Positions 6,281 to 31,025 are shown, counted from the stretch's first letter. The stretch: 64,000 bases of DNA from an uncultured SAR86 cluster bacterium (GCA_902589965.1 CACIUX010000002.1:94998-158997); one strand, 5' to 3'. Made by a program: numbers and translations. Notes: generated by a model from the letters alone, not told the origin.

Positions 6281-6300
6281 TATGATGGTAGGAGTCATAA

Positions 6301-6420
6301 ATGGATTGTGGATGCGGAAGAAGTCCAACAGGTAAATGCATAGGTTGGCATAAGCTATCTGAAGAAGAATACCAACAAAAGCTAAAAGAATACGAAGAAG
6401 AGAAAAATAGCTCTTCTTGA
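6301..6420 (+). CDS. small Cys-rich protein (39 aa), unannotated in the ORF track
   Basis: The ATG at 6301 follows AGGAG (6290-6294) with a 6-nt spacer. Translation is MDCGCGRSPTGKCIGWHKLSEEEYQQKLKEYEEEKNSSS, with a CxC-x7-C-x3-H pattern. Confidence 0.45.
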   Translation: MDCGCGRSPTGKCIGWHKLSEEEYQQKLKEYEEEKNSSS

Positions 6421-6450
6421 TAATTCCCACTTAGCCTCAATATATTTATC

Positions 6451-7451: not shown

Positions 7452-8489
7452 TTATGTAGAAAGAATCTGTTTTATAAAATCCACTTCGTTTTGATCGTAG
7501 GGCGAACCGTCTTGGCGAAAAATATCATGAAACCAAACGTCGGGTTCCGGTATGGATTCACTTTCCTCAATAAAATCTCCTTTATCTTTAAGTTCTTTTA
7601 TCTTAAGAATAGTTTCCCAGCCAAAATGAGTCTGACTTTTACCTGCAACAAGGCCCCAGTTATAGGCTCCTATGTTGTTCTCTTTAAAGATAGGCAATGT
7701 AAATTCAAACGTCGTACCAAATTCTCTTGCCATGTATTCGGTACATATAAGAGGCCTACCAATTTCTTTTAGTTCTTCAATTATAGGAATCACCTTTTGG
7801 TATTCATAGACATGGAAAGTAATAACATCCGATTTTTCTTTATTAGTCTGAATATTTTTATCGCCAATTGTGCCATCAAGGCAGGCAGTTAGAGGCTGGG
7901 ATGGACGAACTTCAAAGGCCCAATCCCAAACTTTACTTAAAAGAATATTAGATTCGTCTCCGATACCAAATTGACCCGGTTCGTTGTAGAGATCCCACAT
8001 TAAGATTCTTTCATCTTCACGAAAATCATCGAGAGTTTCTTGAGTAAATAATTTAAGTCTAGCTTCCTCCTCCTTATTACCCTTTGCAATTTCTCTGACA
8101 ATTTCGTGTCCAGGACTTTGTTTCCAACCGGAATTATGAACGCCTCTAACTGGCAGAGGTTGTTTGCCAAGTTTGGGAAAAGGTCTGTGACAATCATCAA
8201 AGAGAACTAAGATAGGCTTTATATTATGATCTGAACAAAGCGAGAGAATCTCGTTTAGCCGTTTTTTAAAATTTTCTTTATCCTGCCAAAGCAAATCATG
8301 TAGATAAATTCGTAAACTGTTGAAGCCAATGCCACTTGCCCAACCGATTTCTCTTTTATTTGTTTTTAAATCAAAGCTTTGGTTTTGAAACATCTCTAAC
8401 TGATTGATGGCCGAACTTGGAAGATAGTTACAACCCACTAACCACTCATGTATTGAGTACCATTCGTTAATGTCTTTTTTATTCCACAC
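7452..8489 (-). CDS. clan GH-A (GH5-like) glycoside hydrolase, cytoplasmic
   Basis: 'GCNYLPSSAINQLEMF', 'NSLRIYL' and 'WDLYNEPG' (NEP acid/base motif). There is no signal peptide. Confidence 0.6.
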   Translation of the reverse strand: MWNKKDINEWYSIHEWLVGCNYLPSSAINQLEMFQNQSFDLKTNKREIGWASGIGFNSLRIYLHDLLWQDKENFKKRLNEILSLCSDHNIKPILVLFDDCHRPFPKLGKQPLPVRGVHNSGWKQSPGHEIVREIAKGNKEEEARLKLFTQETLDDFREDERILMWDLYNEPGQFGIGDESNILLSKVWDWAFEVRPSQPLTACLDGTIGDKNIQTNKEKSDVITFHVYEYQKVIPIIEELKEIGRPLICTEYMAREFGTTFEFTLPIFKENNIGAYNWGLVAGKSQTHFGWETILKIKELKDKGDFIEESESIPEPDVWFHDIFRQDGSPYDQNEVDFIKQILST

Positions 8490-10066: not shown

Positions 10067-12124
10067 TTAATTGTTGTCTAAAGCGGTGTCGTCGGTAGAG
10101 AATAAAGCAGCTTGTTCAGGCCTAATGGAACTTATCCAGATGGGTGTGGACCAAGCACGTTCTTGGATGAACATAGGTAAATCTTTTCTGATTGTTGAGC
10201 CTGTTTTTATCGCATCCCAGGTTGACCATCGACAGGTTGGATTCTCCAATACTCTGACGTAATAAAAGTTTTTTTGAGTCGGATCATAATTCTCATCGGT
10301 CCAAATTGTTTTTAATTCAGCGGCACCTTTATCCATAGAAAAGGCGCAAGTTTCTATGTCAACTTTAGCTCCATTATCGGGGCAACGATTAGTCTCAGGA
10401 TCAACTTTCAGGTCATTTGAACAAACCACATCGATGACTTCTTCGTTTGGCATAGCATCGAACTCATCTATGGTTCCTTTGATGATTTGAATTCTTTGAA
10501 GTGGAGCACCATTTTTATCCCTTTGCGCCCAAACAATGAAGGAAGGCTTTTCAACTGAATTATAAGCAAGATCACCGCCCATGCTTACGCCTTTTTCATA
10601 TGCCATAGAAATGATTTCTTCATCACTCAGATCCAGATCATCTAGGCCGAAGCCTCCAAAGAATCTTAATTTAATTCTTGTACCGGAAGTTGCGTAAGTT
10701 TCCTTTCTTCTAAAGCCAGCAAAAATAGACTCTCTGGTATTTTCTTCAGCCCAAACTGCTGCAATTCCAGACGCCCCCCAACGGGAGTAGAAAGTATCTA
10801 AGAAATATTCTTCATCTTGTTCAACGAATCGATAGAGACCTTGGGTGTTAACCGATGAAGTAATCTGATCAATGTCTTCCTTAGCAAGGGTGGTTGATCC
10901 TCTGAGGAAAGTTTCACCGTCAAGCAGACCCACTTTTGACCAATAGTTTGATTCATCGTACGAGGAAGCAGCTGTGTGCGTATCACTAGCTCCCACTAAA
11001 CCAAATTTATAGGGATTACCTTTACCCTCCCATTCTGCAAGCATTCCACGGAGATAAGCATCTCTGACGTAACCCCCGTATGGAATAGAATAAATGTTTT
11101 GTCCAATTCTCGAAGGAAAGATTTCAAAATTAGCCCACTCGTCATTAGGCGAGAGAAGAGGATGAGTTTCTGAAGTTCCTTTAACCTGAGTCACTTCTAC
11201 AAGAGGCTCATTCCGCATCCTAAATTCTGCGTACTCTTTATCAACAACATCTCCGTTCCATTTTTCATCTTCAAACATCTGACCATTCGAGCCGTTACTG
11301 TTATGCGGTATTGCTATGCTATCGATGCCTTTTTCATCTCTCAGCATATCCATCCAAGTCCATAAATCTTCAGGATTTATTGAGTCAATTCGTGAAAATG
11401 GCCTGGTCGGTACTTTCGAACCTTCAAAAATTACGTTCCTGTGAAGATTTTCTGAATTCGCCATTGAAGATGTGAATTCATAAGCAATAAAAGTTGTTAA
11501 TTTTCCTGGTTCATAATTTTCTTCAGCTGAGCGAGCCACATCCGCCCACGCTGCAAGATGCGTTCCATGATCGTACATATCGCTTGCTAGAGATAAATTA
11601 TTCGTTCGCCATGCATTGAAAGCACCAATCAGATCATAATTTGTGAGAGTTCTGACCATATTTCTAAAAGCACCAACCCTTTGCGGAATTGAGTCTAGAT
11701 TTACATTTTCAATAGCATTAAGATCATGAAAGTGATCCGCACCAGGAAGCCTTGAGGCTTTAGATCCAACTTCAGCCCAACCGGGGACCATGCCCATGAA
11801 AAAACCATGATCAGTAACTGCAAAGAAATCTAAAGGTTCTTGTAATTGTTGGTCAAATCCTAATGGATGCTTTATAGACTCACCACGGGCAAATCGATAA
11901 GCATCGTCTGGAGTAGCGGTCGTGCCAAAAATATAGGCATCAAAAGAATGCTTGGTATGAACGTGGAGATCACCAAAAAAAACGTCTCTATCTTCACTGT
12001 AAGCAGGCCTGGCATTCTCTCTTTTACTTAAGTCTGCCTCTTCTGAAAAGTCTTTTGTTTGTTTGAGTGAGTCTGAACAACCAATGAAAATGATTGTTAG
12101 CGATATCAGTAAAACTTTAAACAT
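10067..12124 (-). CDS. DUF3604 domain protein (PHP-like metal-dependent hydrolase fold), secreted/lipoprotein
   Basis: Signal peptide with lipobox 'FIGCS'. 'FFGDLHVHTKHSFDA' is the DUF3604/PHP His cluster. Confidence 0.7.
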   Translation of the reverse strand: MFKVLLISLTIIFIGCSDSLKQTKDFSEEADLSKRENARPAYSEDRDVFFGDLHVHTKHSFDAYIFGTTATPDDAYRFARGESIKHPLGFDQQLQEPLDFFAVTDHGFFMGMVPGWAEVGSKASRLPGADHFHDLNAIENVNLDSIPQRVGAFRNMVRTLTNYDLIGAFNAWRTNNLSLASDMYDHGTHLAAWADVARSAEENYEPGKLTTFIAYEFTSSMANSENLHRNVIFEGSKVPTRPFSRIDSINPEDLWTWMDMLRDEKGIDSIAIPHNSNGSNGQMFEDEKWNGDVVDKEYAEFRMRNEPLVEVTQVKGTSETHPLLSPNDEWANFEIFPSRIGQNIYSIPYGGYVRDAYLRGMLAEWEGKGNPYKFGLVGASDTHTAASSYDESNYWSKVGLLDGETFLRGSTTLAKEDIDQITSSVNTQGLYRFVEQDEEYFLDTFYSRWGASGIAAVWAEENTRESIFAGFRRKETYATSGTRIKLRFFGGFGLDDLDLSDEEIISMAYEKGVSMGGDLAYNSVEKPSFIVWAQRDKNGAPLQRIQIIKGTIDEFDAMPNEEVIDVVCSNDLKVDPETNRCPDNGAKVDIETCAFSMDKGAAELKTIWTDENYDPTQKNFYYVRVLENPTCRWSTWDAIKTGSTIRKDLPMFIQERAWSTPIWISSIRPEQAALFSTDDTALDNN

Positions 12125-13731: not shown

Positions 13732-13866
13732 GTGACCAATCGCTGCTCTAACTGCAAAAAAAAACTTCCTCTACATTTTTTTGAAAAGGATCGCCACGGT
13801 CTTATGGGATTAAAAAATGTTTGCAGGCCTTGTTTCTCTTCTCTATCTGCTAAGACGAGCAACTAA
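13732..13866 (+). CDS. possible zinc-ribbon mini-protein (44 aa, GTG start)
   Basis: VTNRCSNCKKKLPLHFFEKDRHGLMGLKNVCRPCFSSLSAKTSN has CxxC-x22-CxxC. There is no SD, and it overlaps the selO 3' end by 17 nt. Confidence 0.25.
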   Translation: MTNRCSNCKKKLPLHFFEKDRHGLMGLKNVCRPCFSSLSAKTSN

Positions 13867-15277
13867 GTTGCTGATTTTGCTGTTCCTTTGGAGCAGGGAT
13901 ACAATATTTATCCATCGACTTGCCCTGATTATCGTAAGGGTTCTTTAACACTTTAGCCAGCTGTTCTATTTTATCTGATCTTCCTTCCTCTGCATCTTCA
14001 ATAGCTGATTGTGCTAGATAATTTCTAAGAATATATTTTGGATTATTTTTATTCATCAATAATATTGATTGCTCAATGTTATTTTCATCTTTGCTTAATC
14101 TAGTTTTATAGGAAGCGAGCCAAGTGGAAAAGTTATCAGACAATTTAAAATCGTCTGGAGAACAAATGATCATAGATAGATCCCTGAAGGTATTGGTATA
14201 GTCGAGTTTTTCTGTTTCCATAATCTCAAACAGCCCAAGAAGAAGATCATAGTCGCCATCTTGGGTGCTTTTAAAACCGAGTTTCTTTCGATATTTTTCA
14301 ATCAAGGAATCGTAAAAATAATCATTAAATTTATTCAAAATATCTCTTAACTCAGTCTCGCTGAAAAGGTCAATTAAAGCTGAGGCAAGAGCATAGCAAT
14401 TCCATTCCGCAATGCTTGGCTGATTTGAAAAGCTATAGCGTCCTTGTGAGTCGGTATGGTTGCAAATGTAGTTAGGGTTAAAAGTTTCCATGAAAGCGTA
14501 CGGACCGTAATCAAAAGTCTCACCGAGAATAGACATATTATCGGTATTCATAACTCCATGATTGAATCCAACACTTTGCCAAGCTGAAACCATGTGAGCT
14601 GTTTTTTTAACTGTTGCATCGAGGAATAATAAGTATTTATCAGAATCTTGTTTTGTATTTGGGTAGTAGCAGTCAATTACATGATCAAGTAACGTTTTTA
14701 CGCCATCTGCAATTTTATTGTGGTGAAAATATTCAAAGTGTCCAAATCTGATATGAGTCTTAGCAGTTCTAACAATCATTGCTCCACGTTCAGTTTCTTC
14801 ACGCATCACCGGTTCGTTGCTGCCGAAAAGCATTAAAGATCTTGAGCTTGGAATGCCTAACCCAAACATTGCTTCGCCGCATAAATGTTCTCTTACCGAT
14901 GATCGGATAACAGCTCTGCCATCACCAAACCTTGAATAAGGAGTTTTTCCTGCACCCTTAATATGAAGATCAACAAGTCCCTCAGACGAATCAATTTGAC
15001 CAAAGAGGATTCCCCGGCCATCACCTAGCTGGTTCACCCAATTACCAAACTGATGACCACCGTATACCATTGCTAGAGGAGAAGATTTAATGAAATTTTT
15101 GCTTCCATTAAAAACTTGCATTAATTCTTCTGGATCGTCTTGAATGCCTAAACTTTTTGCTAAGTCATGATTAAAGTGAAGCAAAAAAGGTTGATCAAAT
15201 GAAGACCAACTTTGCTTCGTATAAAAACTACTAGGTAACTTGGAAAAAGGATTTGTAAATTTTATGTTTTCAAACAT
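13850..15277 (-). CDS. selO: protein adenylyltransferase SelO (YdiU/UPF0061)
   Basis: 'HQFGNWVNQLGDGRGILFGQ', 'HIKGAGKTPYSR', 'DGRAV' and 'GVMNTDNMSILGETFDYGP' are SelO pseudokinase-fold signatures. Confidence 0.85.
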   Translation of the reverse strand: MFENIKFTNPFSKLPSSFYTKQSWSSFDQPFLLHFNHDLAKSLGIQDDPEELMQVFNGSKNFIKSSPLAMVYGGHQFGNWVNQLGDGRGILFGQIDSSEGLVDLHIKGAGKTPYSRFGDGRAVIRSSVREHLCGEAMFGLGIPSSRSLMLFGSNEPVMREETERGAMIVRTAKTHIRFGHFEYFHHNKIADGVKTLLDHVIDCYYPNTKQDSDKYLLFLDATVKKTAHMVSAWQSVGFNHGVMNTDNMSILGETFDYGPYAFMETFNPNYICNHTDSQGRYSFSNQPSIAEWNCYALASALIDLFSETELRDILNKFNDYFYDSLIEKYRKKLGFKSTQDGDYDLLLGLFEIMETEKLDYTNTFRDLSMIICSPDDFKLSDNFSTWLASYKTRLSKDENNIEQSILLMNKNNPKYILRNYLAQSAIEDAEEGRSDKIEQLAKVLKNPYDNQGKSMDKYCIPAPKEQQNQQLSCSS

Positions 15278-15280
15278 CTT

Positions 15281-16330
15281 TTATTTCAAGAAAGATAAAG
15301 CATTCAAGTGCAAAGCTTGCCAGGCCGATCTTTCTGCCATCACAGCAAACATTTCATCGCCGCGGTCTGTTCTCTCAACAATCATCGCAGATAATACAGC
15401 CATCAAAAAGCCTACAAAAGAAGCACGTCGATAATCATCCCATGCTTGTTCAAAACTATAACTATCACTAACCCCAAGTAAATCGTAATAACCCTTGACT
15501 AAACCCTCCTCCTTCTTAGCTCTTTCGTTAGGTTCTCGAAAACTTGTTGATATGCAATAAGCTACATCATTTAAAGGCAAGCCGACTGCTGCAGTTTGCC
15601 AATCTAGAAGGACTGCTCTGTTATTTTTATCTGTGAAGAGCAGATTATCAAGCCTCAAATCACCCTGAACTAATGTCATAGGTCCTTCTCTAACATCAGC
15701 ATACTTGTCGTAATTGGTTAATAAAGTATCGCCCATCTCAAAAATATCTTTTGAAATTCTTCCACGGTATCTGTTCTTCCATTCAGGATAAACGGCTGGT
15801 AAAAGCTCTGCAGCGAATTTTTTTCTTTCTTCGCTGATGCCATAGGTAAGCCAAGGATAAGTTAAAAGTGTTTCATCGTTCCAATAACTTTTGTGAAGTG
15901 CTGCAGCTTCTTTCAAAACCATCGCAATCTCATCGGCGGTGCAACCTTCCATTTGAGGAATTTGTTTGGCAGGGTACATATCTTCGAGCAGTAAGATGCC
16001 ATCGTTTGTTTCTGAATCGTAATCTGCAAAGTAAGGTTCAGGTACTCGTGCAGAACATTTTGCAGATAAGTATTGATAGAATGATACTTCTATTTCATAT
16101 AAATGAAGATTTCTTGCAGTTTCTCTACTTGAAGAATCCTCTGCAGGACATTTGGCAATTAAAGAAGCAGGAGAATCTTTTGCATTAATCCAGTTTAGGT
16201 TGATTCGATAACAATCTCCTACCTGGCCTGATCCTACTGCTTCAAAGTCAAAACTATCTAGATCTAATTCTTCTTTATTAAACAAATTCGAAATAAATTC
16301 TTTTGTTAGCTGATTTGGATGATCCAACAT
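15281..16330 (-). CDS. kinase-fold phosphotransferase (APH/choline-kinase/EcKL-like)
   Basis: Catalytic loop 'QGDLRLDNLLF' and metal-binding 'LLDWQ'. It lies 3 nt upstream of selO. Confidence 0.7.
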   Translation of the reverse strand: MLDHPNQLTKEFISNLFNKEELDLDSFDFEAVGSGQVGDCYRINLNWINAKDSPASLIAKCPAEDSSSRETARNLHLYEIEVSFYQYLSAKCSARVPEPYFADYDSETNDGILLLEDMYPAKQIPQMEGCTADEIAMVLKEAAALHKSYWNDETLLTYPWLTYGISEERKKFAAELLPAVYPEWKNRYRGRISKDIFEMGDTLLTNYDKYADVREGPMTLVQGDLRLDNLLFTDKNNRAVLLDWQTAAVGLPLNDVAYCISTSFREPNERAKKEEGLVKGYYDLLGVSDSYSFEQAWDDYRRASFVGFLMAVLSAMIVERTDRGDEMFAVMAERSAWQALHLNALSFLK

Positions 16331-16331
16331 T

Positions 16332-17147
16332 TTAAATATCTTGTATTATTGATTTTATGGGTTCGTATGAAAATTCATCAATATTACAATTGAAATAGAG
16401 TGATAAATTTTCAAAAATAAAACTTTCGTTCAACCTTTTTTTAGTCTCATCCCGTTCCTTTTTATTCAACCAAAAGTTACTCCAAATGAAATCAAATCTT
16501 TCATTTCCTAAAAATATTAATCTATTGCCATCAGTAATTTCTACGTTATAGCGATGTGAATTCGAAAAGATTGCAGGATTTGCATTATCTACAGTTGAGA
16601 GAATCGCTAAAGCTAAATTAAGATCGTTCTCGTCTTTGAAATTGCAAGACACGAACATTGAATAATGAGGCGGAAGACCCAACCACTCTACATCTGGCTC
16701 TTTCGATGAAACTATTTCAGTTACTTCTTCAATTTCCTCATCACAAGCTAAAACTTTATTAAATCTAGAGTTCCATCTTTCCTCATAAAGCTCTTGCCAG
16801 ATCAACTTAAATTCATCTCTTGTTTCAGAGTCACTCCATGTCTCGCTCCAAATAAGAGTTTCCGTTCTATTCTTCTGAAACAAAGATGACCTAACCGATG
16901 GATTTTTTAACTCTTCCATCACCTCATTCCATCCTCTCAACAATACTTCGAGATTTTTTTTAGAAAAATCTTCTCCTTTAGTGCAGGTTTTATAGACATT
17001 TATCCCGCTTTTTTGAAGAAATACGTCTTCCATCGTATCGATATCTATAACTACTCTATCTTCATTTTCAGTTAGTTCATTCTGACAGCTAAGTAAAACA
17101 AGAATTATCAAAATTGCTGAAAAAATTAACGATTTGTTAGTTTTCAT
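16332..17147 (-). CDS. lipoprotein of unknown function
   Basis: Signal peptide plus lipobox 'VLLSCQ'. I recognise no family. Confidence 0.5.
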   Translation of the reverse strand: MKTNKSLIFSAILIILVLLSCQNELTENEDRVVIDIDTMEDVFLQKSGINVYKTCTKGEDFSKKNLEVLLRGWNEVMEELKNPSVRSSLFQKNRTETLIWSETWSDSETRDEFKLIWQELYEERWNSRFNKVLACDEEIEEVTEIVSSKEPDVEWLGLPPHYSMFVSCNFKDENDLNLALAILSTVDNANPAIFSNSHRYNVEITDGNRLIFLGNERFDFIWSNFWLNKKERDETKKRLNESFIFENLSLYFNCNIDEFSYEPIKSIIQDI

Positions 17148-17227
17148 ATTAGTTTCATTTTAGCATTCCATAACAATAGATTTTTTACTATAGTTAAAGG
17201 CCGTAAAAAATTTTTTAGGAGAGATAT

Positions 17228-17935
17228 ATGAAATTTTTACAACTAATGGCATTGCTGGTTTTATCCAGTTTTATTTTTACTCAGAATGCCCCAGGAGATG
17301 GAGCCTTCTCAACTTTTCACGTTAAAGCTGAAAATCCAACTGAGTACGCAAATTATCTAAAAGAGAATTCACAACTTTTAGGAAATCAAAACCCAGTTGC
17401 TGCAGGTACATGCATTACAAGAGCAGGAAGTAGATACACTGGAGAAATGTTTGTATGGCAAGCTTTTAATAGCATGGAGGAAGCAATGGATAATACAACT
17501 GCTTACGATCCCTACTCTGCTCCTTTCGCCTTGAAACAAATGAGGACACCTCTTTATTCATCTTTTTGGAAACCACTTAAGTCTTTCAACATAAGACCGA
17601 AGAGTTTTGAAAGAGTCAACAGAGTTATCGTGCAACCTGAGAACTTATTAGAATACATTCAAGTAGCAACGATGTTTGAACAAGAACTTCAGAAATCAAA
17701 TCCTGGCTTTGTTTTGGGAATCTTTCAACCATTAGGTGGCGGCGCAGAAGAAGCAGTTGCAAATCAGTACATGGTTAGGGGGTTAACAGATACTCCAGGA
17801 GAACACGGGAAATTCGCAGATGATTTTTTTGCGGGCAACGTAACCTGGGCTGCCATGTATCAAAAACTACTTAGTTTAGGAACTATAATTGATGATAGTT
17901 ATGATGAGTGTGAAATTCTTTACACGGCTGAATAA
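17228..17935 (+). CDS. secreted protein of unknown function, paralogue A
   Basis: It has a signal peptide. It is roughly 40% identical by eye to the next gene ('FSTFHV.AENP.EY', 'GEMF.W.A', 'FERV.RV.V.PEN', 'PLGGG', C-terminal 'CEILYTAE'). Confidence 0.6.
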   Translation: MKFLQLMALLVLSSFIFTQNAPGDGAFSTFHVKAENPTEYANYLKENSQLLGNQNPVAAGTCITRAGSRYTGEMFVWQAFNSMEEAMDNTTAYDPYSAPFALKQMRTPLYSSFWKPLKSFNIRPKSFERVNRVIVQPENLLEYIQVATMFEQELQKSNPGFVLGIFQPLGGGAEEAVANQYMVRGLTDTPGEHGKFADDFFAGNVTWAAMYQKLLSLGTIIDDSYDECEILYTAE

Positions 17936-17951
17936 TTTATTAGGAGATATT

Positions 17952-18683
17952 ATGAAAATATTTAATTTAATTTTAATCATGGTCTTAGCAAATTTCACAA
18001 TTGCTGATGATCATGTTTCCGCAAGCTCTGCTGCAGGAGCAGGCTTGCCTGAAGGTGGATTTTCTACATTTCATGTAGTTGCTGAAAATCCTTACGAATA
18101 CATTGAAGCTCTTAAAGCAGCTCCAGAGGCATTAGCAGCCGGTGGAGGAGATGTTGTTGGCTATTGTATGACTATGACTGGTCATGATTATCCAGGTGAA
18201 ATGTTTATTTGGAATGCTTATTCCAGTCTAAAAGATGCACTATCTTCCTCTGCAGGCCTTTCTTATAATCCTTACGATGCACCAAAGCAGCTTCAAAATA
18301 TGAGAAAAATTTTGTATACAAGTGCATGGAAGCCTTTGACACCATTCGAACTCAAACCTGGATTTGAAAGAGTCACTAGAGTGATGGTTAAGCCTGAGAA
18401 TACCCAAAAGTTTCTTCAAGCTACAGAAATGGTTCAGGCCGCTATAAATGCTTCGGGTTCTGAATTTGAAATGGGTGTTTTTCTACCTTTAGGAGGAGGA
18501 TCCAAGGAAACTACTATGATGTTAAGAGGTATTGCTCCTGACGGAGAATCTTTTGGTTCTCTTTATGAAGAAGGTTATGGCGGAGCAGCATGGGGACAAG
18601 CATTCTTAGGAATGATGGCTTTAGTAGACGAAATAGTTAGAGACTCTCATGAACAGTGTGAGATTCTATACACAGCTGAGTAA
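17952..18683 (+). CDS. secreted protein of unknown function, paralogue B
   Basis: The ATG at 17952 follows AGGAGA. It has a signal peptide and shares motifs and the C-terminal 'CEILYTAE' with paralogue A. Confidence 0.6.
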   Translation: MKIFNLILIMVLANFTIADDHVSASSAAGAGLPEGGFSTFHVVAENPYEYIEALKAAPEALAAGGGDVVGYCMTMTGHDYPGEMFIWNAYSSLKDALSSSAGLSYNPYDAPKQLQNMRKILYTSAWKPLTPFELKPGFERVTRVMVKPENTQKFLQATEMVQAAINASGSEFEMGVFLPLGGGSKETTMMLRGIAPDGESFGSLYEEGYGGAAWGQAFLGMMALVDEIVRDSHEQCEILYTAE

Positions 18684-18687
18684 GATT

Positions 18688-19389
18688 ATGAAAAAGTTTT
18701 TACTATTATTCATGATTGCTGCCACAGGGAATCTTTTCGCTGACGGCCATGCTTCTCCACCCATGACTGCCCATTATGGGATTTCAACTTCGAATCCTGC
18801 TGCAGTGGTGGAATCTTTGCAAACGTTCATGGCGTCTGACTGCGCCAAAGAAATGCCAGCTCGAGTAACTCTGTTTGAGCCGCACTTCAATGGAGATAAT
18901 GCAGCCACTCACATTCTTACCTTTAATTATCAAAATGGGAAAGGGATGGATGCAGTGCGTCAAACTTTTCAAACTTGTGCAGCTGCCCAACAATTTCTAG
19001 CTGACGGCGTAGGCGTCGTGACTCAGGAATATCAGATTCTTTCCACACCTATTTATGCCGGTGGAAGCGCTCCAGAAGCTAACGTTTACATGCTTTGGCA
19101 AATGAAAGTCTCGGATGAGGCCAAATACGCTGCTGCTTATAAAAAGATGATGGAAGCGCAAACAGAAGATGGCTTAGCCTCAGGAAGTTATGGCGTGAAC
19201 AGAATCATGTCAGGAGGAGTTGATGGAATGACTCACTTTGCCTATATTTTTGGTTCGTCCATGGCTGAAATGACTGAAGCTCTGAGTGTCAGTCAAGCAA
19301 GTGAAAACTTTAAAACATTCGCTCAAGAAGTAGAATCAATCAGAGAAATCGTAACTGTTGACGCTGGATACACGTTAATCCAATATTAA
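18688..19389 (+). CDS. secreted protein of unknown function (same size class, distant or unrelated to A/B)
   Basis: ATG at 18688, with signal peptide 'MKKFLLLFMIAATGNLFA'. It appears to contain two roughly 100-aa halves. Confidence 0.55.
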   Translation: MKKFLLLFMIAATGNLFADGHASPPMTAHYGISTSNPAAVVESLQTFMASDCAKEMPARVTLFEPHFNGDNAATHILTFNYQNGKGMDAVRQTFQTCAAAQQFLADGVGVVTQEYQILSTPIYAGGSAPEANVYMLWQMKVSDEAKYAAAYKKMMEAQTEDGLASGSYGVNRIMSGGVDGMTHFAYIFGSSMAEMTEALSVSQASENFKTFAQEVESIREIVTVDAGYTLIQY

Positions 19390-19397
19390 TTTTGGTA

Positions 19398-19431
19398 AAA
19401 AAAAAGGAAGGCTTTAGCCTTCCTTTTTTTA
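19398..19431. terminator. bidirectional rho-independent terminator
   Basis: aaaaaggaaggc-ttta-gccttccttttt is a perfect stem flanked by an A-run and a T-run, between convergent genes. Confidence 0.75.
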
Positions 19432-19441
19432 TTGATGTGAA

Positions 19442-20182
19442 TTAGCGAACTATTCTTCCAGAAAATAAAGTTGAACCGTTGCAATCGTAAGCATCTCTTA
19501 CCGCATTGCTTTCGGCTGATCCTCTTACGTCATCGTACCAACCGTCAACAGCTTCACCCCAATTGGTAAAAGAAGGATTTGTGAACAACCTCACAAAATC
19601 AAAAGGAAATTCAGCAGCATTTGTTCCTGAAGACGGTCTAATCAGCGCAGAGCTCGATTTAGAACCTTTTGAATGTCCTAGCTTAAGTTCTGCATTGGAA
19701 GCCAAGTAAGCATCGCTCAGGCTTTTCCCATCATTTAAGTTACATGTGTAATAAGAAGCACTGAAATTTTGACCCTCAAGATCATCTCGGTCGGTAACCG
19801 CATCCATCCACCATTGATAAGTTAGAATTTGAGTATCGCAAAACATTGGCCAAGCATCTCTAGATTTTTCTCCTGCATCAGAAAGCCACCAATCCATTGC
19901 TTTGCCTGCTTGAGCATTGTCTTGCCAAGTATTGACCCATAAAACATCGTATTCAGAAATATCAGTCTTAAAAAATGGCATCAACATTGTTGAACCCATT
20001 TCAATACCCGCTTTGTCCAACTCCTCATTAAAAAGTTCAACATATTCCTCAAGCGACTCCATACCTTTTCCAGGCAGAAATTTACATTGGCTGTATCCAG
20101 CAGTGAGAGGATCGGGCACTTCTTGTGAAGCAAGACTAATTGGTAGGCCAATTAATGCCGTAAGTAATATTATTTTTTTCAT
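19442..20182 (-). CDS. secreted protein of unknown function with internal duplication
   Basis: It has a signal peptide. The two halves begin 'YSQCKFLPGKGMESLEEY' and 'YYTCNLNDGKSLSDAY'. Confidence 0.55.
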   Translation of the reverse strand: MKKIILLTALIGLPISLASQEVPDPLTAGYSQCKFLPGKGMESLEEYVELFNEELDKAGIEMGSTMLMPFFKTDISEYDVLWVNTWQDNAQAGKAMDWWLSDAGEKSRDAWPMFCDTQILTYQWWMDAVTDRDDLEGQNFSASYYTCNLNDGKSLSDAYLASNAELKLGHSKGSKSSSALIRPSSGTNAAEFPFDFVRLFTNPSFTNWGEAVDGWYDDVRGSAESNAVRDAYDCNGSTLFSGRIVR

Positions 20183-20249: not shown

Positions 20250-21203
20250 TTAAAGTAAACCCTTTCCGACAAGGGCTCTGTTAACCAAGATGGGGAAAGG
20301 AACTTCCTCGATGATTTCCTTTGCGGGATTCATTTCGAGAATCTCCTGCGCTGATTTACCTTGGTCAACTAAAGCGTCTATTCTGTTGTTCACTGCTACA
20401 AGCTTCATTAAGAAACTTTTAATTGTGTCTTTATCAGCGATTGGTCCATGACCTGGAACAACTATAGTATCGTCATCGATCAGCTCAAGTACTCTGTACA
20501 AGGAAGAAATCATCCCTTCAAGGGTGCCGCCGTTATCTGCATCGATAAATGGTAGTCCATCTAAGTTCGTTAAATCTCCAGTGTGGATAATATTGGCTTC
20601 TTTAAAATAAATAACTGTATCCCCAGTGGTGTGCGCAGGGCCAAAATTCATTAACTTAATGGTTTGACCATTTAAATTTAGATCAAGAGTATCTTTATAA
20701 GTGACGGTCGCTAACGCTTCCTTTTCATAAGGTTGCTGTGGATAAACGGCACCGACTAAGTTAATAGAAGCTCCAGATTTCATATAATTAAGAGAGTTTA
20801 TGTGCGCATAAATTTCTGCACCTAAAGGACCAAAAGCTCTATTTCCATCAGCATGATCAAAATGCCAATGTGTATTGATAATATGATTTATACCCGAACC
20901 TCCAAGAGACTTTATTTTTGCCAGCAAAGCTTCATAGATTTGTGGGAACTGTGAATCAATTGCAAGAATGCCATCTTCTCCAATTGAGATTAAGATATTT
21001 CCTCCGAAACCAAAAATTACATGAAAATCTTTTTTAATCGTTTCATGTCTTATCAAGGAAGGATCGAAGGTAAATCCAAAAGCATCTAGAACCTCCTTTT
21101 GGCCTTCAGCATAAACATTAAAATCTGGCAGTTTAACTTCACTGCAAGACAGCAATATGATTACAAGCGAACAAGGTATAATTTTTTTTAAATTCATTTT
21201 CAT
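20250..21203 (-). CDS. MBL-fold metallo-hydrolase, lipoprotein
   Basis: 'NTHWHFDHADGN' (HxHxDH) and lipobox 'LLSCS'. Confidence 0.8.
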   Translation of the reverse strand: MKMNLKKIIPCSLVIILLSCSEVKLPDFNVYAEGQKEVLDAFGFTFDPSLIRHETIKKDFHVIFGFGGNILISIGEDGILAIDSQFPQIYEALLAKIKSLGGSGINHIINTHWHFDHADGNRAFGPLGAEIYAHINSLNYMKSGASINLVGAVYPQQPYEKEALATVTYKDTLDLNLNGQTIKLMNFGPAHTTGDTVIYFKEANIIHTGDLTNLDGLPFIDADNGGTLEGMISSLYRVLELIDDDTIVVPGHGPIADKDTIKSFLMKLVAVNNRIDALVDQGKSAQEILEMNPAKEIIEEVPFPILVNRALVGKGLL

Positions 21204-22514: not shown

Positions 22515-23525
22515 TTACTGTTTCCTTCCGAGATGATCAAAATTATTAAAAAATGCCCAAATAATCTCTGCAGAATTTATATCATACTGACCAGTACCCC
22601 CATTTCCATCGACTTCATAATTTTCAGGCCAGTCGTGGCCAACTCCTTCTAACAGATACAACTGAACTTCAACATCGTTAGCACATTCAGAATAAATTCT
22701 ATGCGTTCCGCTTACACCATTTCCAGAAAAGTCTGATATCGTTGCGATAGAAGGTTCAAGATTACAAGCGTTGTTATTCGACCAAAACTCCATAACCTCC
22801 TCGATGCCCTTGAATCCTACTCCAGAAGCGGTAACCGAACCGTCATAAGGAACAATTGTGTCCACAGTCCCATGGATTTGCATTACGGAAGTTGGTTGAG
22901 CGTTGCAGTTATCGTAACTAAAAACACTCATTGATCCGGTAACAGAGGCAATGGCTGCAATTTTCGAATTGATATTACAAGCGAGGTGATAGCTCATAAA
23001 ACCGCCATTTGACATTCCGGCGGAGTAAAATTGATTTAAATTAATATTGTAATTCTGACCGACCCAATCCAAAACGGATTCTAAAAATTCAATACTATTG
23101 ACTGAGTTTCCCAGACCGATTTCATCAGTGTTCCAATGTGTGCCTCCCTTTGTTTCATGAACCAAACCTTGGGGATAAATAACCACAAAGTCATTGATAT
23201 CGGCTTGTTTCATAAATCCTGTATAACTCATATTGGTCAGGGCGGTGCTGGTATAACCGTGCAAACTAAACATTGCAGGATAGGGCGTTCCAACCTCAGA
23301 ATAGTTCTCAGGAAGGTATATGTAAAATTGCCTATCGGTCGCAATACATCTTCTGAGAGTACCTTGGTATGGAGACGGATAAATAGTGATGGTTGCGCTG
23401 TAAGTTGAGCAATTTGGATTAAACCCAGTTTCTAAGGGAATAGAACTGCTGTTATCTGAATTAGACGATTCACCACATCCTAAAACTAACGAAAGAAATA
23501 TAAAGAGAAGAAGCGATTTATTCAT
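22515..23525 (-). CDS. secreted alpha/beta esterase, PHB-depolymerase/feruloyl-esterase (LpqC-like) family
   Basis: 'LHGYTS' and the nucleophile elbow 'GMSNGGFMS', with signal peptide plus lipobox 'LGCG'. The ATG at 23525 overlaps the upstream stop (ATGAATAA). Confidence 0.7.
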   Translation of the reverse strand: MNKSLLLFIFLSLVLGCGESSNSDNSSSIPLETGFNPNCSTYSATITIYPSPYQGTLRRCIATDRQFYIYLPENYSEVGTPYPAMFSLHGYTSTALTNMSYTGFMKQADINDFVVIYPQGLVHETKGGTHWNTDEIGLGNSVNSIEFLESVLDWVGQNYNINLNQFYSAGMSNGGFMSYHLACNINSKIAAIASVTGSMSVFSYDNCNAQPTSVMQIHGTVDTIVPYDGSVTASGVGFKGIEEVMEFWSNNNACNLEPSIATISDFSGNGVSGTHRIYSECANDVEVQLYLLEGVGHDWPENYEVDGNGGTGQYDINSAEIIWAFFNNFDHLGRKQ

Positions 23526-23808
23526 AACCCTCGACAATTGCATAAGCTCTCTCAGCTCCGCCATCTAGCACTGCAAGCGCTTGCTGATAGTCATCGCTTT
23601 CGTAGGCTTGCAAAGCAATTTCAAAGGAAGGGAATTCGACAACAACATTGCGCATGAATTCTGCGCCTTCTTTCGTAGCTTGCTCACCACCTCTGACTAA
23701 AAATTTGCCGTTAAATTTTGCTATGACTTCTTCAGCTAATTTTCCGTAGGCTCCTTGCTTATCGCCATCAATTACGTTTGCTTTTGCAACCCAATATCCT
23801 TTTTTCAT
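23518..23808 (-). CDS. DUF1330 domain protein
   Basis: 96 aa. 'KGYWVA...YGKLA...F.GKFLVRGG' and 'FPSFE.A..WY-like' regions resemble DUF1330. Confidence 0.65.
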   Translation of the reverse strand: MKKGYWVAKANVIDGDKQGAYGKLAEEVIAKFNGKFLVRGGEQATKEGAEFMRNVVVEFPSFEIALQAYESDDYQQALAVLDGGAERAYAIVEGYE

Positions 23809-25410: not shown

Positions 25411-25710
25411 ATGAGTAAATTTGCAAATTGCGTTCGCTTTGTTGTTAAAGAAGACTGCATTGATGATTTTATCGCAGGCTTTACTGATTCTAACCTTCAA
25501 CCCTCTGGAATGTTAGTGAGCGAAATGTTCCAAAGCGGCGAAAGAGAGTTTGTTTCATTTGGAGTGTTTGAGAGCGAGGATGCCCTTATAGCGGCTAGAC
25601 CTGAAATGATAGCTTTTTTGGACACCATCCGAGACTTTCTTGAAGAAATTTCTCCTGAGTTGGGGGTAACCGATCCTCGATCAGGCAATGTTCTTTGGAG
25701 TATGAAGTAA
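25411..25710 (+). CDS. small ferredoxin-like (ABM/Dabb-like) protein
   Basis: 99 aa, preceded by AGGAGA. The call is by size and pattern only. Confidence 0.4.
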   Translation: MSKFANCVRFVVKEDCIDDFIAGFTDSNLQPSGMLVSEMFQSGEREFVSFGVFESEDALIAARPEMIAFLDTIRDFLEEISPELGVTDPRSGNVLWSMK

Positions 25711-25712
25711 AA

Positions 25713-25973
25713 CTATCTTTTAATTACTTTTAAGACTTCTTCAACTTTATCGTCAAAATTCTTTTTATCTTTCAGTGCATCCTTAACGCATTCTTTTAGA
25801 TGGGTTTTGACGATTTTGCCCTCTACAGTAGTAAGAGAGTTTCGTACTGCTTTAATTTGATTAAGAATATCAATGCAGTATTTTTCATCTTCAATCATCT
25901 TCGCAATGCCGCGGATCTGACCTTCTATTCTTTTAATACTACTTAAATGCTCTTTATGACTTGGATGACTCAT
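25713..25973 (-). CDS. csoR: CsoR/RcnR/FrmR-family metal-sensing repressor
   Basis: 86 aa. 'RIEGQIRGI..MIE....C.DIL.Q..AV' plus the C-H-C ligand pattern (YCID ... KTHLKEC). Confidence 0.8.
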   Translation of the reverse strand: MSHPSHKEHLSSIKRIEGQIRGIAKMIEDEKYCIDILNQIKAVRNSLTTVEGKIVKTHLKECVKDALKDKKNFDDKVEEVLKVIKR

Positions 25974-25975
25974 GA

Positions 25976-26341
25976 TTATAAATACCTCGGAATAATGTAA
26001 GTAAATGAAGTTGCAAAAATAAAAATCGCAACGGAAAAATAATAAATGTATCTAGACCTTCTTCGTGTTTGTAAACAAGCTCTCCCTAATTCTGGATCAG
26101 CAGGACACGGTAAATAGTAAGTTCGATAATTTACATAGCCTGCAAAAAGAATCATGAAGAGGGCGAATAGTGTAATTTGTAGTTTGTACTGCGATAAAAC
26201 AATAAGAAAAGGAAAGATGGTAATTAAACTAGCAAAAGTGGCGCCAGCGCCTAGGGCGACAAATAAGGCTGGAAGCGCACAACAAACTAGCGTTGATGAA
26301 GAGGCAAACAAAGAAAAGAAATTAGCCGATTTATCGTACAT
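25976..26341 (-). CDS. MerT-like three-TM membrane protein with CC and C-x9-C motifs
   Basis: 'LVCCALPALFVALGAG' is a Cys pair in TM1, and 'CPADPELGRAC' sits in a loop. At 121 aa, the size and topology resemble MerT. Confidence 0.5.
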   Translation of the reverse strand: MYDKSANFFSLFASSSTLVCCALPALFVALGAGATFASLITIFPFLIVLSQYKLQITLFALFMILFAGYVNYRTYYLPCPADPELGRACLQTRRRSRYIYYFSVAIFIFATSFTYIIPRYL

Positions 26342-26343
26342 GA

Positions 26344-26742
26344 TCAGAGTTTCAGTACTTGAAGTTTAGTTGCATTTTGTCCATTCGAAACAATCATTTT
26401 TTTGATTTTTTCAAAATCAATTTTTGTGTTCATTTGATACGCAATAAAAACCTTACCTTTATTCAAATCAACATCAATCTTGGCCACGGTTTTATCTTTT
26501 TTAAAAGTTTTTTCGATTCCTTGCGCGCAAAAGTCACAAACCATCCCTTTGACGCTGACCACTGCAATTTGTTTATCCTTCAAACCTTCAACAAATTTAT
26601 CAAAACGCTCAACATCAACCTCTAACTTTTCGCCGTCAACCATTTGCTCGTGCAGATGACCTTCATGAGAATGATGATCATGAGTATCTTGTGCGTTACC
26701 AAGCGCAGGTAGAAGAAATACGAAAGCAAGCAATATTTTCAT
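26344..26742 (-). CDS. periplasmic heavy-metal-associated (HMA) domain protein, MerP/CopZ-like, His-rich N-terminus
   Basis: Signal peptide, 'DTHDHHSHEGHLHE', and HMA motif 'GMVCDFC'. Confidence 0.8.
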   Translation of the reverse strand: MKILLAFVFLLPALGNAQDTHDHHSHEGHLHEQMVDGEKLEVDVERFDKFVEGLKDKQIAVVSVKGMVCDFCAQGIEKTFKKDKTVAKIDVDLNKGKVFIAYQMNTKIDFEKIKKMIVSNGQNATKLQVLKL

Positions 26743-26751
26743 AAATGCCTC

Positions 26752-27354
26752 CTAAAACCTATACATAACAAGGGCATCCCATTCTGTTTGATCGTTGTAA
26801 CCAAACTCGATGAGAAAGTTACCTTTAAAAAATTTTAAAACTGGAAAAGTTGACCAATCACCAAGCAGAGTATTTTTCTTTGTTTTTATCATAATCCAAG
26901 TATGAAAATCTCCGTAAGCACCCAAATAGGGAGCAACCCCAACTTGCAAAAATTGATCGGTGTAATTTTTAAGAGAATTTTTCACATCCCGATAATTGAA
27001 GCCAATAAACCATCTTCGTGTCTCCCAATCTCCGTGCAATCCATAAAAATGCCCATCCAAGCCATCCGAGCTAAGACCAGACTGGAAATAGAGGTTTCCT
27101 TGAGAATTTTCAGTATTACGTCTATTAAGTAAATAGGTGAATCTAAAGTAACTGTATTGTTGATTAAAAAACTTATCTTCAACGCTTTCAATGCCAACCG
27201 AATATCGATAAGTAGGCGAGAAATGATAATAGAGAGAGTTATACATGTTTCCGGAAAAAGCCATCAGGGTGGAACCTCCTGAATACGAAATAGGCCTCGC
27301 CTCACTGATCAAAGTGAAAAAAAACATTGTAAATACAAGTAGCTTAATACCCAT
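26752..27354 (-). CDS. probable small outer-membrane beta-barrel protein
   Basis: Signal peptide, alternating aromatic/hydrophilic pattern, and C-terminal '...LVMYRF' (terminal Phe). Confidence 0.45.
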   Translation of the reverse strand: MGIKLLVFTMFFFTLISEARPISYSGGSTLMAFSGNMYNSLYYHFSPTYRYSVGIESVEDKFFNQQYSYFRFTYLLNRRNTENSQGNLYFQSGLSSDGLDGHFYGLHGDWETRRWFIGFNYRDVKNSLKNYTDQFLQVGVAPYLGAYGDFHTWIMIKTKKNTLLGDWSTFPVLKFFKGNFLIEFGYNDQTEWDALVMYRF

Positions 27355-27392: not shown

Positions 27393-27734
27393 TTAATTAA
27401 TCTTTGCTTTGAGAGTTTCTTTGAGTTGAGACAAATTATCGATGTGTTCAAAATCTCTTCTTGAGATCAGCTCTTTAAAGGAATTTTCTTTTTCCAATAA
27501 TATTGTAGGATAAGTCAGGTTCAGCTTTTTTATCGACTCGGGTAATTCGTTTATATGCAAAACTTGATAAGGACGATCTAATTCTCCAAGGAAACCATCC
27601 CAAGACTTTTTTTGAAAGATTAAAGTATGACTAAGATCGCACAGTTTACACTTGTCACGGCCGGATATTTTTTTAAGAAAGTAACTGATCTCCCCAAAAA
27701 AAGATCCATCGGCATTGTAGATAAAATAGATCAA
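27393..27734 (-). CDS. hypothetical protein with CxxC motif
   Basis: 113 aa with 'DKCKLCDLSH'. I recognise no family. Confidence 0.4.
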   Translation of the reverse strand: MIYFIYNADGSFFGEISYFLKKISGRDKCKLCDLSHTLIFQKKSWDGFLGELDRPYQVLHINELPESIKKLNLTYPTILLEKENSFKELISRRDFEHIDNLSQLKETLKAKIN

Positions 27735-28216
27735 TCGATGGGCTTTAGTTCATTTTTAAACAATCGAGTCGCTACCAATAAATCGCTATTGTACTCACGA
27801 ACAGAATGGATCAAGCCATCCTTCATTTTGAATATCCAAACGTATTTATTATCGTATTCTCCGTTGATACCTTCTGCATCACCGACTTGAATTAAAGCTA
27901 CCCCATCATTATCTGAAATAGCATCAATTGTGGTCAGAACGATTCCGTTCGGTAAAAGCTCTCCAACGACCGGCCAATAATTATCAAAAAAACTTTCTTT
28001 TCCATGAATTTCACTACCTGGGTAAACGATTCCCATCCACATGAAGGTAAAATCCTCATGCATTAGTTCTGATGCTGCATCAAGATCGCCAGAAATCAAC
28101 AAATGATCCATCCAGGACTGAGCTAACTCTTCATTTTTCTCACCGTTAATTTGAACATCAACTTCCATATTGCATGCCACAAGCAAAAACATTGATAAAA
28201 CTAAAATTATTCTCAT
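27731..28216 (-). CDS. SnoaL/NTF2-like lipoprotein
   Basis: I prefer the ATG at 28216 because it gives a signal peptide and lipobox 'LLVACN'. The NTF2-like pattern is 'W.DHL..GDLDAA.ELM.EDF'. Confidence 0.5.
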   Translation of the reverse strand: MRIILVLSMFLLVACNMEVDVQINGEKNEELAQSWMDHLLISGDLDAASELMHEDFTFMWMGIVYPGSEIHGKESFFDNYWPVVGELLPNGIVLTTIDAISDNDGVALIQVGDAEGINGEYDNKYVWIFKMKDGLIHSVREYNSDLLVATRLFKNELKPID

Positions 28217-28283
28217 AAATTCTCCATAATTGCTTTTAATATTGTAGATAAAAAAATCCACTTTAAAATCATATCATTGGTCT

Positions 28284-29087: not shown

Positions 29088-29726
29088 TCAAACATACATT
29101 TTGAACTGATCTTCATCAAAAATCGGATCTAGAGACAACATTAATCTGTTTTCATATATGTTTGGAGATCGGTGAACAACTCCATTGAACTGACTCTGCC
29201 AAGTTCCACCTTTCAATAACGACCATTCGCCAGCTTTAAATTGATTCACTTTCTTTTTTTCTTTTAACGGAGCATCAAGATTTGTTCTGTCGTCAAAAAG
29301 TTTCCAATCAACATCGTTGTTTGCAATCCATTCGGTCCCACCACCAGAAAGTGTAATTAGCAATCTGCATGGAATTTGATCAACATGAAACCTAGGACAC
29401 ATTGGTTTATCAAGGGTTAAGAGTCTCACCCCTACATACTTACAATCTAAAGTTTGATTAAGCATGCCACAGCTTCCTTTTATTTGGTCAGCAAGCATTT
29501 TGCTTGCCTCAGGATCAATTGATCCCGGAAGAAATTCATCAACTATTCTCAAATCATCCAAAGACTGAATCCATTGAAGTTCGAGATCCTGTCTCGCATT
29601 TAGAATTTCTCTCCCTAAAGAATCTATATAACTTGATTGAGGATGAGCGACGCATACTAGTTCAACATCTTTTGAGTAGATATCTCCAAAACTTTCTAAC
29701 TTCTCACTGAAAACTGATTTCATCAT
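29088..29726 (-). CDS. DUF1826 domain protein
   Basis: 'CPRFHVDQIPCRLLITLSGGGTEW' resembles the DUF1826 core. It lies immediately downstream of the COG0523 GTPase. Confidence 0.6.
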   Translation of the reverse strand: MMKSVFSEKLESFGDIYSKDVELVCVAHPQSSYIDSLGREILNARQDLELQWIQSLDDLRIVDEFLPGSIDPEASKMLADQIKGSCGMLNQTLDCKYVGVRLLTLDKPMCPRFHVDQIPCRLLITLSGGGTEWIANNDVDWKLFDDRTNLDAPLKEKKKVNQFKAGEWSLLKGGTWQSQFNGVVHRSPNIYENRLMLSLDPIFDEDQFKMYV

Positions 29727-29741
29727 TTTTTTATCCCCAAG

Positions 29742-30947: not shown

Positions 30948-30989
30948 CTTTCACACCTACCAAAGCGTTAAAAATTAATTTTAATGACG

Positions 30990-31015
30990 TATCGCCCAAA
31001 ATTAATTGGGCGATA
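30990..31015 (-). terminator. 10-bp perfect hairpin (tatcgcccaa / ttgggcgata) just downstream of the receptor gene
   Basis: Read directly. No clean U-tract follows on the minus strand, so it may be an attenuator or a binding site instead. Confidence 0.4.
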
Positions 31016-31025
31016 GCATCACATT

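Follow-up and report, generated by a model that had tools for sequence, protein, structure and literature searches.

SAR86 bacteria rank with the most abundant uncultured heterotrophs in the surface ocean, and a large share of their envelope proteome lacks annotation. In other proteobacteria, the slot next to SCO1 in the cytochrome oxidase (cox) gene cluster is often held by the copper chaperone PCuAC. Metal can also be held by the amino-terminal Cu(II)/Ni(II) (ATCUN) motif, which binds tightly and has Asp-X-His as its archetypal form, as in serum albumin (DAHK), hepcidin (DTHF) and histatin-5 (DSHA). Tandem ABM-type proteins, which place two ferredoxin-like repeats in one chain, are known as cytoplasmic proteins. 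Here we describe a block of five genes, lettered A to E by position, at 16332-20182 of a 64,000-nucleotide stretch of DNA from an uncultured SAR86 cluster bacterium (GCA_902589965.1 CACIUX010000002.1:94998-158997), called the window below. The block comprises two uncatalogued families of exported two-repeat proteins, B/C/D and A/E, the fold of A/E being a candidate only, and the predicted mature forms of C and D begin with Asp-X-His.

A bacterial ATCUN motif has been described in the disordered N-terminus of PcoB (PMC12509749). The structure 2PGC, one of five JCSG structures from novel families confined to Global Ocean Sampling data, has no assigned function (PMC2557142). Literature on SAR86 exported proteins, on SAR86 and copper, on ATCUN motifs in the periplasm and on ATCUN motifs with PCuAC contained nothing about the families in the block. 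Pfam and NCBIfam scans of all five proteins returned zero matches, and PDB sequence searches matched none of the five, the queries B, D, E and A and the profiles A2-A5 giving chance matches only. The original prediction, made from the sequence of the window, had marked five exported-protein open reading frames (ORFs) at this place and could not assign them to a family. All five are present, each with a signal peptide by sequence, and no profile search placed any of them in a well-known family. Neither of the two protein families that emerge from the block is represented in Pfam, NCBIfam or the PDB sequence set.

B and C are paralogues that share 38% identity over their full length (E 1.6e-56), and every motif listed for the pair in the original prediction occurs in both, including the C-terminus CEILYTAE. 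D, the third plus-strand gene, had been described as alike in size and export signal; by profile alignment it is moreover a distant homologue of B/C. hhalign aligns D with the B/C profile at 97.1% (E 6e-11, over 219 columns), and the family hidden Markov models of B/C and D also cross-match individual sequences. A preliminary result of no cross-family homology, obtained with shallow family profiles, was superseded when distant members were added and the link between B/C and D appeared. Half-profile comparison further matches the first half of B to its own second half (94.7%, E 6e-8) and to the second half of D (95.7%, E 1e-8), and the first half of D to the second half of D (79%, E 2e-5). An internal duplication had been proposed for D and E. 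It is borne out for D by the halves and by the structural model, has moderate support for E, and extends beyond that proposal to B/C, again in both halves and model.

The B/C superfamily is sparsely populated. When 1.84 billion representative proteins were searched exhaustively with HMMER and the B/C profile, just 151 matches reached E <= 1e-3. All full-length matches are 227-259 aa long and start with a hydrophobic, signal-peptide-like segment. Named members come from Myxococcota, from Hyphomonadaceae/Henriciella and from metagenome-assembled genomes (MAGs) of other Pseudomonadota, and every one is annotated as 'hypothetical'. D-like genes are also found singly in MAGs of Binatia and Acidimicrobiia. 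Pfam places none of 40 B/C-superfamily members above threshold. Over all Pfam scans, which also covered the five proteins and half-domains of A, E and X, the only related scores are sub-threshold (DUF1330, E 0.09-0.15; DUF6614, E 0.013), and neither ABM (PF03992) nor another Dabb-clan family (DUF1330, EthD, NIPSNAP etc.) exceeds its gathering threshold. In a diverse alignment of 40 superfamily sequences, just two columns never vary, Cys62 and Cys228 (B numbering); Tyr40 and four Gly are near-invariant. The D family has its own invariant residues, namely an FMASDCGK motif (C52), H75, C97 and H183.

Two repeats are also seen in structural models. AlphaFold2 gave a B model with a predicted local distance difference test score (pLDDT) of 82.4 and a predicted template-modelling score (pTM) of 0.78 from a 17-sequence alignment, and a D model with pLDDT 83.1 and pTM 0.77 from a 10-sequence alignment, the D model used being the best of five runs whose pLDDT ranged from 83 down to 48. 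DSSP assigns the order beta-alpha-beta-beta-alpha-beta twice in each model. As modelled, B, C and D are single-chain mimics of the dimeric alpha+beta barrel (ferredoxin-like, ABM/Dabb-type), C being given the same fold because it is 38% identical to B. The models make B/C/D a new branch of a well-known fold, the ferredoxin-like barrel. A ferredoxin-like dimeric alpha/beta barrel had been guessed from sequence for D and E; models and Foldseek bear the guess out for D and extend it to B/C. Mapped on the B model, Cys62 belongs to strand beta2 in repeat 1 and Cys228 to the final strand of repeat 2, positions from which we infer a disulfide across the pseudo-dimer seam. In D, His75 and His183 each stand at the start of strand beta3, one per repeat, in both model and alignment.

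Foldseek searches of the PDB connect these models to structures from several families. The top match is 2PGC for both B (TM 0.62/0.69) and D (TM 0.72/0.82; root-mean-square deviation 3.0 A over 213 columns). It is followed by the tandem-ABM proteins 3F44, 3MCS, 5F9P and PenE, then by Cld/HemQ/DyP proteins and sulfur oxygenase reductase (SOR). For 2PGC, 3F44, 3MCS, 5F9P, PenE, Cld/HemQ and SOR, Foldseek probability is 1.00 and TM is 0.5-0.82, and identity to all structural matches is 8-14%. 2PGC (jcvi_pep_1096685590403) is likewise a single chain (of ~205 residues) with two ferredoxin-like repeats, a marine origin and a blank function. The likeness is structural only, at 11-12% identity to B and D, and no 2PGC sequence match was found at E <= 10 with B, the B/C profile, the D profiles, A/X (X being a relative of A described below) or E. 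The tandem ABM-type proteins (3F44, 3MCS, the anthrone-oxidase-like 5F9P and 9KDP, PenE) form the same pseudo-dimeric two-repeat barrel in one chain of ~210-240 residues, whereas the window proteins are exported, carry conserved cysteine pairs and have no Pfam ABM match; in the B/C superfamily, moreover, no polar residue other than Cys is invariant that could be a conserved catalytic one. The haem proteins of the Cld/HemQ/DyP (CDE) group resemble them in having two ferredoxin-like domains in ~240 residues (Foldseek E 1e-8 to 1e-5), and some, such as Cld and EfeB, are periplasmic. They differ in that TM is only ~0.5, in that the window proteins have no Pfam Chlor_dismutase or Dyp_perox match, and in that a proximal-His helix motif of the Cld/HemQ/DyP type was not identified in the window proteins.

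The predicted mature N-termini of C and D may point to a metal. With the predicted cut written as a slash, the mature protein would begin with Asp-Gly-His in D (NLFA/DGHASPP) and Asp-Asp-His in C (FTIA/DDHVSAS). Across the D family A18 and D19 never vary and conservation of H21 is 90% or more, at an overall identity of just 27%, so that the surroundings of the predicted signal-peptidase site are conserved better than the rest of the protein. The -3/-1 rule is obeyed in every case, with Ala at -1 and Leu, Ile, Ala, Val or Thr at -3. The predicted mature termini are DGH in D, DDH in C and in distant D-like proteins, and DHH in relatives, all starting with Asp and none having Pro as the second residue. 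Seven of the 43 full-length 50%-identity clusters of the B/C superfamily have an A/D-x-H terminus. An A/E-type protein in L052 also starts this way (SVFA/DDHASAG; L-numbers such as L012, L024, L052 and L068 label the relatives' loci compared with the window), and an unrelated 143-aa exported protein in L068, beside B/C- and D-type genes, has the same type of terminus (S/DHHELN). Within the window, C and D are the only real proteins with an Asp-X-His terminus. These sequences suggest that C and D would conform to the ATCUN pattern, NH2-X-X-His, if cleavage follows the conserved Ala. In C and D the motif would sit on a folded tandem ferredoxin-like domain instead of a peptide or disordered tail, at a cleavage site that is itself predicted.

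The surroundings of D-like genes elsewhere in SAR86 hint at copper. In nine SAR86 loci, which fall into two related groups, SCO1/SenC is followed after 64-66 bp by a D-like gene, with which a Cox11-COX3-CtaA-CtaB-SCO1 cluster for cytochrome oxidase assembly ends. The D-like proteins at these loci have 27-30% identity and the N-terminus A/DDHKV. The comparison with PCuAC (DUF461) and Sco1 is one of setting: a D-like gene adjoins SCO1 in some SAR86 genomes, and D is exported with invariant Met, His and Cys. PCuAC has a cupredoxin-like beta sandwich, a fold unrelated to that of D, and no Pfam match to PCuAC (PF04314), whose Cu(I) motif is H(M)X10MX21HXM, was obtained. Only the gene position is alike, and the comparison is that D may work like PCuAC, not that it is a member of its family.

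D-type genes also recur beside the other types in the block. They stand next to A/E-type genes in three lineages (that of the window, L023-25/L060-61 and L052) and next to B/C-type genes in two (that of the window and L068). A dedicated envelope function had been proposed for the block, and the original interpretation as a whole is partly supported. The block is not one unit, and D, A/E and B/C types do recur together in other lineages. Because of this recurrence, a shared envelope function, which we infer for the block, gains some support. The loci concerned have features of their own. L068:2657-8344, from an unrelated lineage with 47% G+C, carries co-directional genes for a B/C-type protein (YA/DHHT), an exported SnoaL-like protein, DUF3303 and a D-type protein. 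The same strand carries, further upstream, another DUF3303 gene, the gene for the 143-aa exported protein and one for a 249-aa protein with an A/E-like cysteine pattern; the 249-aa protein was rejected as an A/E member (z ~2, not significant) and is not counted here. On the single contig of L052:1003-6781, two D-like genes and an A/E-type gene (5999-6781, GTG start) lie next to a phage-type integrase gene. Two D-like genes also stand in tandem in L053:5941-7435.

The explanation we prefer, tentatively and as possible rather than probable, is that C and D handle Cu(II) or Ni(II) in the periplasm. Since no set of catalytic residues is conserved across the B/C superfamily, a binding role is likelier than an enzymatic one. 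Signal-peptidase cleavage after the conserved Ala would leave a free NH2-Asp-X-His on C and D, and the semi-tryptic N-terminal peptide of the mature proteins would then start DGHASPPMTAHYGISTSNPAAVVESLQTFMASDCAK. The cysteine pairs would form disulfides, as expected in the periplasm. At the freed terminus, C and D would capture Cu(II) (or Ni(II)) and either buffer it or hand it on. The acceptor in D may be a putative second site made of the invariant Met48, Asp51, Cys52, His75, Cys97 and His183, and the metal would be destined for cuproprotein assembly, notably of cytochrome c oxidase. B, A and E are without the motif and would serve as partners or alternative-ligand members of the same envelope set. 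A bolder version, which we consider unlikely, makes C, D and their relatives an unrecognised class of periplasmic metallochaperone: a disulfide-stapled tandem barrel with an ATCUN hook would pass scarce Cu(II) from seawater to Sco1 and cytochrome c oxidase, filling the role of PCuAC in SAR86, with A and E as lipid-anchored partners.

For B/C/D, the analysis supplies a fold, a hallmark cysteine pair and a cheaply testable Cu(II)/Ni(II) hypothesis with a link to cytochrome oxidase assembly. If the hypothesis is true, the block contains a new periplasmic metal-handling module, and a function comes into view for 2PGC-like orphan ocean proteins, whose structures have been known yet functionally blank since 2007. 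Should metal handling prove wrong, the annotation of exported tandem ferredoxin-like barrel families would still be useful, if not surprising.

The window holds a possible copper or mercury handling cluster of its own at 25713-27354 (minus strand), starting 5.5 kb from the block. It consists of a CsoR-like metal-sensing repressor (25713-25973), a membrane protein that resembles MerT below threshold (25976-26341), an exported protein (26344-26742) with an HMA domain and the His-rich N-terminus QDTHDHHSHEGHLHE, and a 200-aa protein ending in ...VMYRF that has the look of an outer-membrane barrel (26752-27354).

Several observations weigh against metal handling by the block. Adjacency to SCO1 is limited to one SAR86 sub-lineage, the two related groups above; the window's own lineage does not have it, and D stands there among unrelated genes. 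Seven unrelated genes separate the CsoR/HMA genes from the block. The cleavage site of C and D derives solely from the -3/-1 rule, and a crude site predictor did not reliably pick it; this simple predictor was discarded when it cut inside the hydrophobic core. B, A, E and most members of the B/C superfamily are without Asp-X-His, as are some D-like proteins (P0044 and the copies in L052 and L053). The B/C-type relatives in Hyphomonadaceae and in other lineages and phyla have gene neighbourhoods with no common neighbours. The fold of A and E, finally, comes solely from a crude Chou-Fasman profile, which is compatible with two beta-alpha-beta-beta-alpha-beta units.

The structural matches themselves suggest other functions. 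Since the best matches after 2PGC include the anthrone-oxidase-like 5F9P, the putative monooxygenases 3MCS and 3F44, and PenE, the proteins might be ABM-type oxygenases or isomerases (ActVA-Orf6, anthrone oxidases, PenE-like) that work in the periplasm without a cofactor and act on imported quinone-, polyketide- or lipid-derived molecules. Such enzymes need just O2 and a substrate, which makes the periplasm workable, and SnoaL-like genes occur nearby both in the window (27731-28261) and in L068. We regard this as doubtful: the 40 B/C members share two Cys and no invariant polar catalytic residue, no member reaches the Pfam threshold of ABM or a related family, and identity to the structural matches is as low as stated above. 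A haem binder or handler of the Cld/HemQ/DyP/EfeB kind, with His75 and His183 as ligands, is a reading for D and perhaps its relatives that draws on the many Cld, HemQ and DyP structures matching the D model (E 1e-8 to 1e-6), on the invariant His at the start of beta3 in both D repeats, and on the D-like genes of other SAR86 lineages that follow the haem A and haem O synthase genes. It is quite unlikely, given a TM of ~0.5 to Cld/HemQ vs 0.72-0.82 for 2PGC and the absence of a Pfam Chlor_dismutase or Dyp_perox match. B/C do not conserve the His residues of D, the haem A pathway lies within the membrane and faces the cytoplasm whereas D is exported, and the immediate neighbour of the D-like genes is SCO1, a copper chaperone.

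The absence of conserved catalytic residues is also compatible with periplasmic carriers that move hydrophobic organic substrates between the many SAR86 TonB-dependent receptors and inner-membrane transporters, in which case Asp-X-His would be meaningless. The cleft of an alpha+beta barrel is a common small-molecule pocket, as is generally known of the fold, and the B/C array shifts in copy number and type between close genomes, as paralogues of differing ligand specificity often do. This reading has little probability; no transporter or receptor gene is consistently adjacent in the loci compared, and it leaves unexplained both the conservation of A-D-x-H in a variable region and its recurrence in unrelated neighbours. 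The five genes might also have no common function, being independent families that lie together through SAR86 synteny in a region rich in exported proteins. The block does fall into three separate transcription units, synteny runs well past it in all close relatives, the neighbouring DUF3604, metallo-beta-lactamase (MBL)-fold and PHB-type esterase genes also encode lipoprotein signals, and D-like genes stand alone in Binatia and Acidimicrobiia MAGs. Only a small chance is given to this explanation, since D with A/E in three lineages and D with B/C in two is more than local synteny predicts. Cu(II)/Ni(II) handling by C and D is retained as the preferred explanation, at the tentative level given above.

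A and E form the second family, joined through an intermediate, X. X is a 263-aa lipoprotein of other SAR86 lineages with the lipobox VAGC, and its Pfam LPAM_1 match is sub-threshold (17.3 bits vs a cutoff of 20, E 0.006). It aligns with A over the full length (E 1e-7 to 7e-9), its second repeat is 30% identical to the first repeat of E, and a search seeded with X retrieved both A and E at the first iteration. On this sequence evidence A and E are one family. An A-E hhalign score of 96.6% was discarded: it was circular, the same X sequences being present in both alignments, and it falls to ~2% once they are removed. E itself has only near-identical homologues among 5.8 billion proteins.

The repeats of A and E are less distinct than those of B/C/D. 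The internal repeat of A has z = 3.9. In E, Smith-Waterman alignment of the halves gives z = 5.1 (one shuffle in 300 did as well) and a Cys...Cys pattern is repeated, but hhalign of the halves is not significant; the internal duplication of E is moderately supported. Each repeat of A and E carries a Cys towards either end (C55, C134/135, C168 and C254 in A; C33, C115, C146 and C233 in E), and alignment A5 has invariant Cys and Trp. Pfam gave no match to half-domains of A, E or X. The Chou-Fasman profile behind the candidate fold is weak evidence, reaching a control three-state accuracy (Q3) of 0.65-0.68 on the B and D models. By sequence the five proteins are two groups and not one family. HMM-HMM comparison, which had been proposed as a check of their common ancestry, detected no profile similarity that links B/C/D to A/E, including with merged repeat profiles.

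The features of the block are collected in Table 1.

Table 1. Genes and intergenic features of the block, with the loci at which D-like genes adjoin SCO1 (positions in the window unless a locus label is given)
Feature	Position	Strand	Description
Gene A	16332-17147	-	271 aa; predicted lipoprotein, A/E/X family
Gene B	17228-17935	+	235 aa; exported tandem ferredoxin-like protein (as modelled)
Gene C	17952-18683	+	243 aa; B paralogue, array type 2
Gene D	18688-19389	+	233 aa; exported tandem ferredoxin-like protein (as modelled), distant B/C homologue
Gene E	19442-20182	-	246 aa; exported, A/E/X family
A-B divergent intergenic region	17148-17227		80 bp, AT-rich; ribosome-binding site AGGAGA upstream of B
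Bidirectional intrinsic terminator hairpin	19399-19430		Between convergent D and E; A-run, GGAAGGC stem, T-run
SCO1-adjacent loci	L021:3078-8702; L054:21-6714; L022; L026; L055-57; L063; L065		D-like gene next to SCO1

All five N-termini have a basic n-region, a hydrophobic core and a cleavage region of small residues, as predicted by inspection of the sequences. The signal peptide of A ends in the lipobox LLSC with Cys21, which agrees with the lipoprotein pattern [LVI][ASTVI][GAS]C. The start codons used for C and D are those conserved in orthologues; longer upstream ORF starts are not conserved. Close homologues occur exclusively in SAR86 genomes and marine metagenomes, and the SAR86 single-cell genome AG-908-F10 is ~94% identical to the window in DNA. 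More than 20 SAR86 contigs keep the order A, B/C array, D, E, so the five genes are real and conserved. In these contigs the block is flanked on one side by genes for DUF3604, a zinc-dependent alcohol dehydrogenase (Zn-ADH), SelO and an EcKL-type kinase, and on the other by genes for an MBL-fold hydrolase, DUF3429, SRAP and a PHB-type esterase. The block is not a genomic island. G+C is raised at 18-20 kb of the window, which probably reflects the Ala/Gly-rich C and D proteins.

The block is made up of three transcription units and is not one operon. On the minus strand, the stop codon of A lies one base from the start of a kinase gene (15281-16330), which in turn ends three bases before the SelO gene (13850-15277). 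By the Pfam assignments of the neighbours, A is the first gene of a tight operon with an EcKL/APH-like kinase and SelO. This operon (13850-17147) pairs an exported protein with two presumably cytoplasmic nucleotide-transfer enzymes, an odd combination; the distant A homologue X is without the kinase/SelO pairing and sits upstream of a secreted CIA30-domain protein. B, C and D form the second unit, with gaps of 16 bp (B-C) and 4 bp (C-D) and with D as the last gene. The third unit is that of E on the minus strand, downstream of a lipoprotein gene of the MBL fold (20250-21203). The B-C-D and E units both end at the terminator between D and E, whose RNA fold has -21.4 kcal/mol and z = -5.0, with 0 of 200 shuffles as stable. 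This terminator emerged from direct folding; a consensus promoter and terminator scan did no better than on shuffled sequence and located no promoters. Those of A and B should both lie in the 80-bp region that separates the two genes.

The B/C genes form an array that changes between close relatives. One, two or three B/C-type genes stand between A and D, depending on the SAR86 genome, and across the loci compared (L001-L004, L009-L018 and L034-L044) they fall into five sequence types in a fixed order: type 3, then 4 or 5, then 2 or 1. A, D and E are mostly ~90% identical across the same genomes, D falling to ~55% in one lineage. In the window, a type-4 gene precedes a type-2 gene. Window positions 17100-17368 align with the start of the type-3 gene in the three-gene array of L012 (L012:5700-7300), and 17287-17960 align with the body of a type-4 gene. 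Judged by these alignments, B in the window is a recombinant with the promoter and signal peptide of type 3 and the body of type 4, from which the loss of one repeat unit by unequal crossing-over within 17287-17368 would follow.

The region around the block is unusually rich in envelope proteins. Three nearby enzymes also carry lipoprotein signals, namely DUF3604 (10067-12124; FIGC), the MBL-fold hydrolase next to E (LLSC) and a PHB-depolymerase-type esterase (22515-23564; VLGC). In L024, a small Cys-rich ORF at 7507-7716 on the plus strand (CPYC...CQVCC, 69 aa, TTG start) has the look of a CPXCG zinc ribbon and sits where the X and D-like genes diverge, within the 670 bp that separate them. 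An Rfam scan of the window and of L024 found tRNAs only. Further along the window, genes for DUF1826, a COG0523/CobW-type GTPase and a TonB-dependent receptor stand in a row at 29088-33347 (minus strand), a layout that is usual in Zur-regulated gene clusters for zinc starvation. Two small cytoplasmic proteins of ~96-99 aa are encoded nearby at 25411-25710 (plus strand) and 23518-23808 (minus strand). One of them is a DUF1330 protein, by its Pfam family in syntenic loci, and the other, with no Pfam match, resembles a single ferredoxin-like ABM-type domain. The region may thus also encode single-domain relatives within this fold class.

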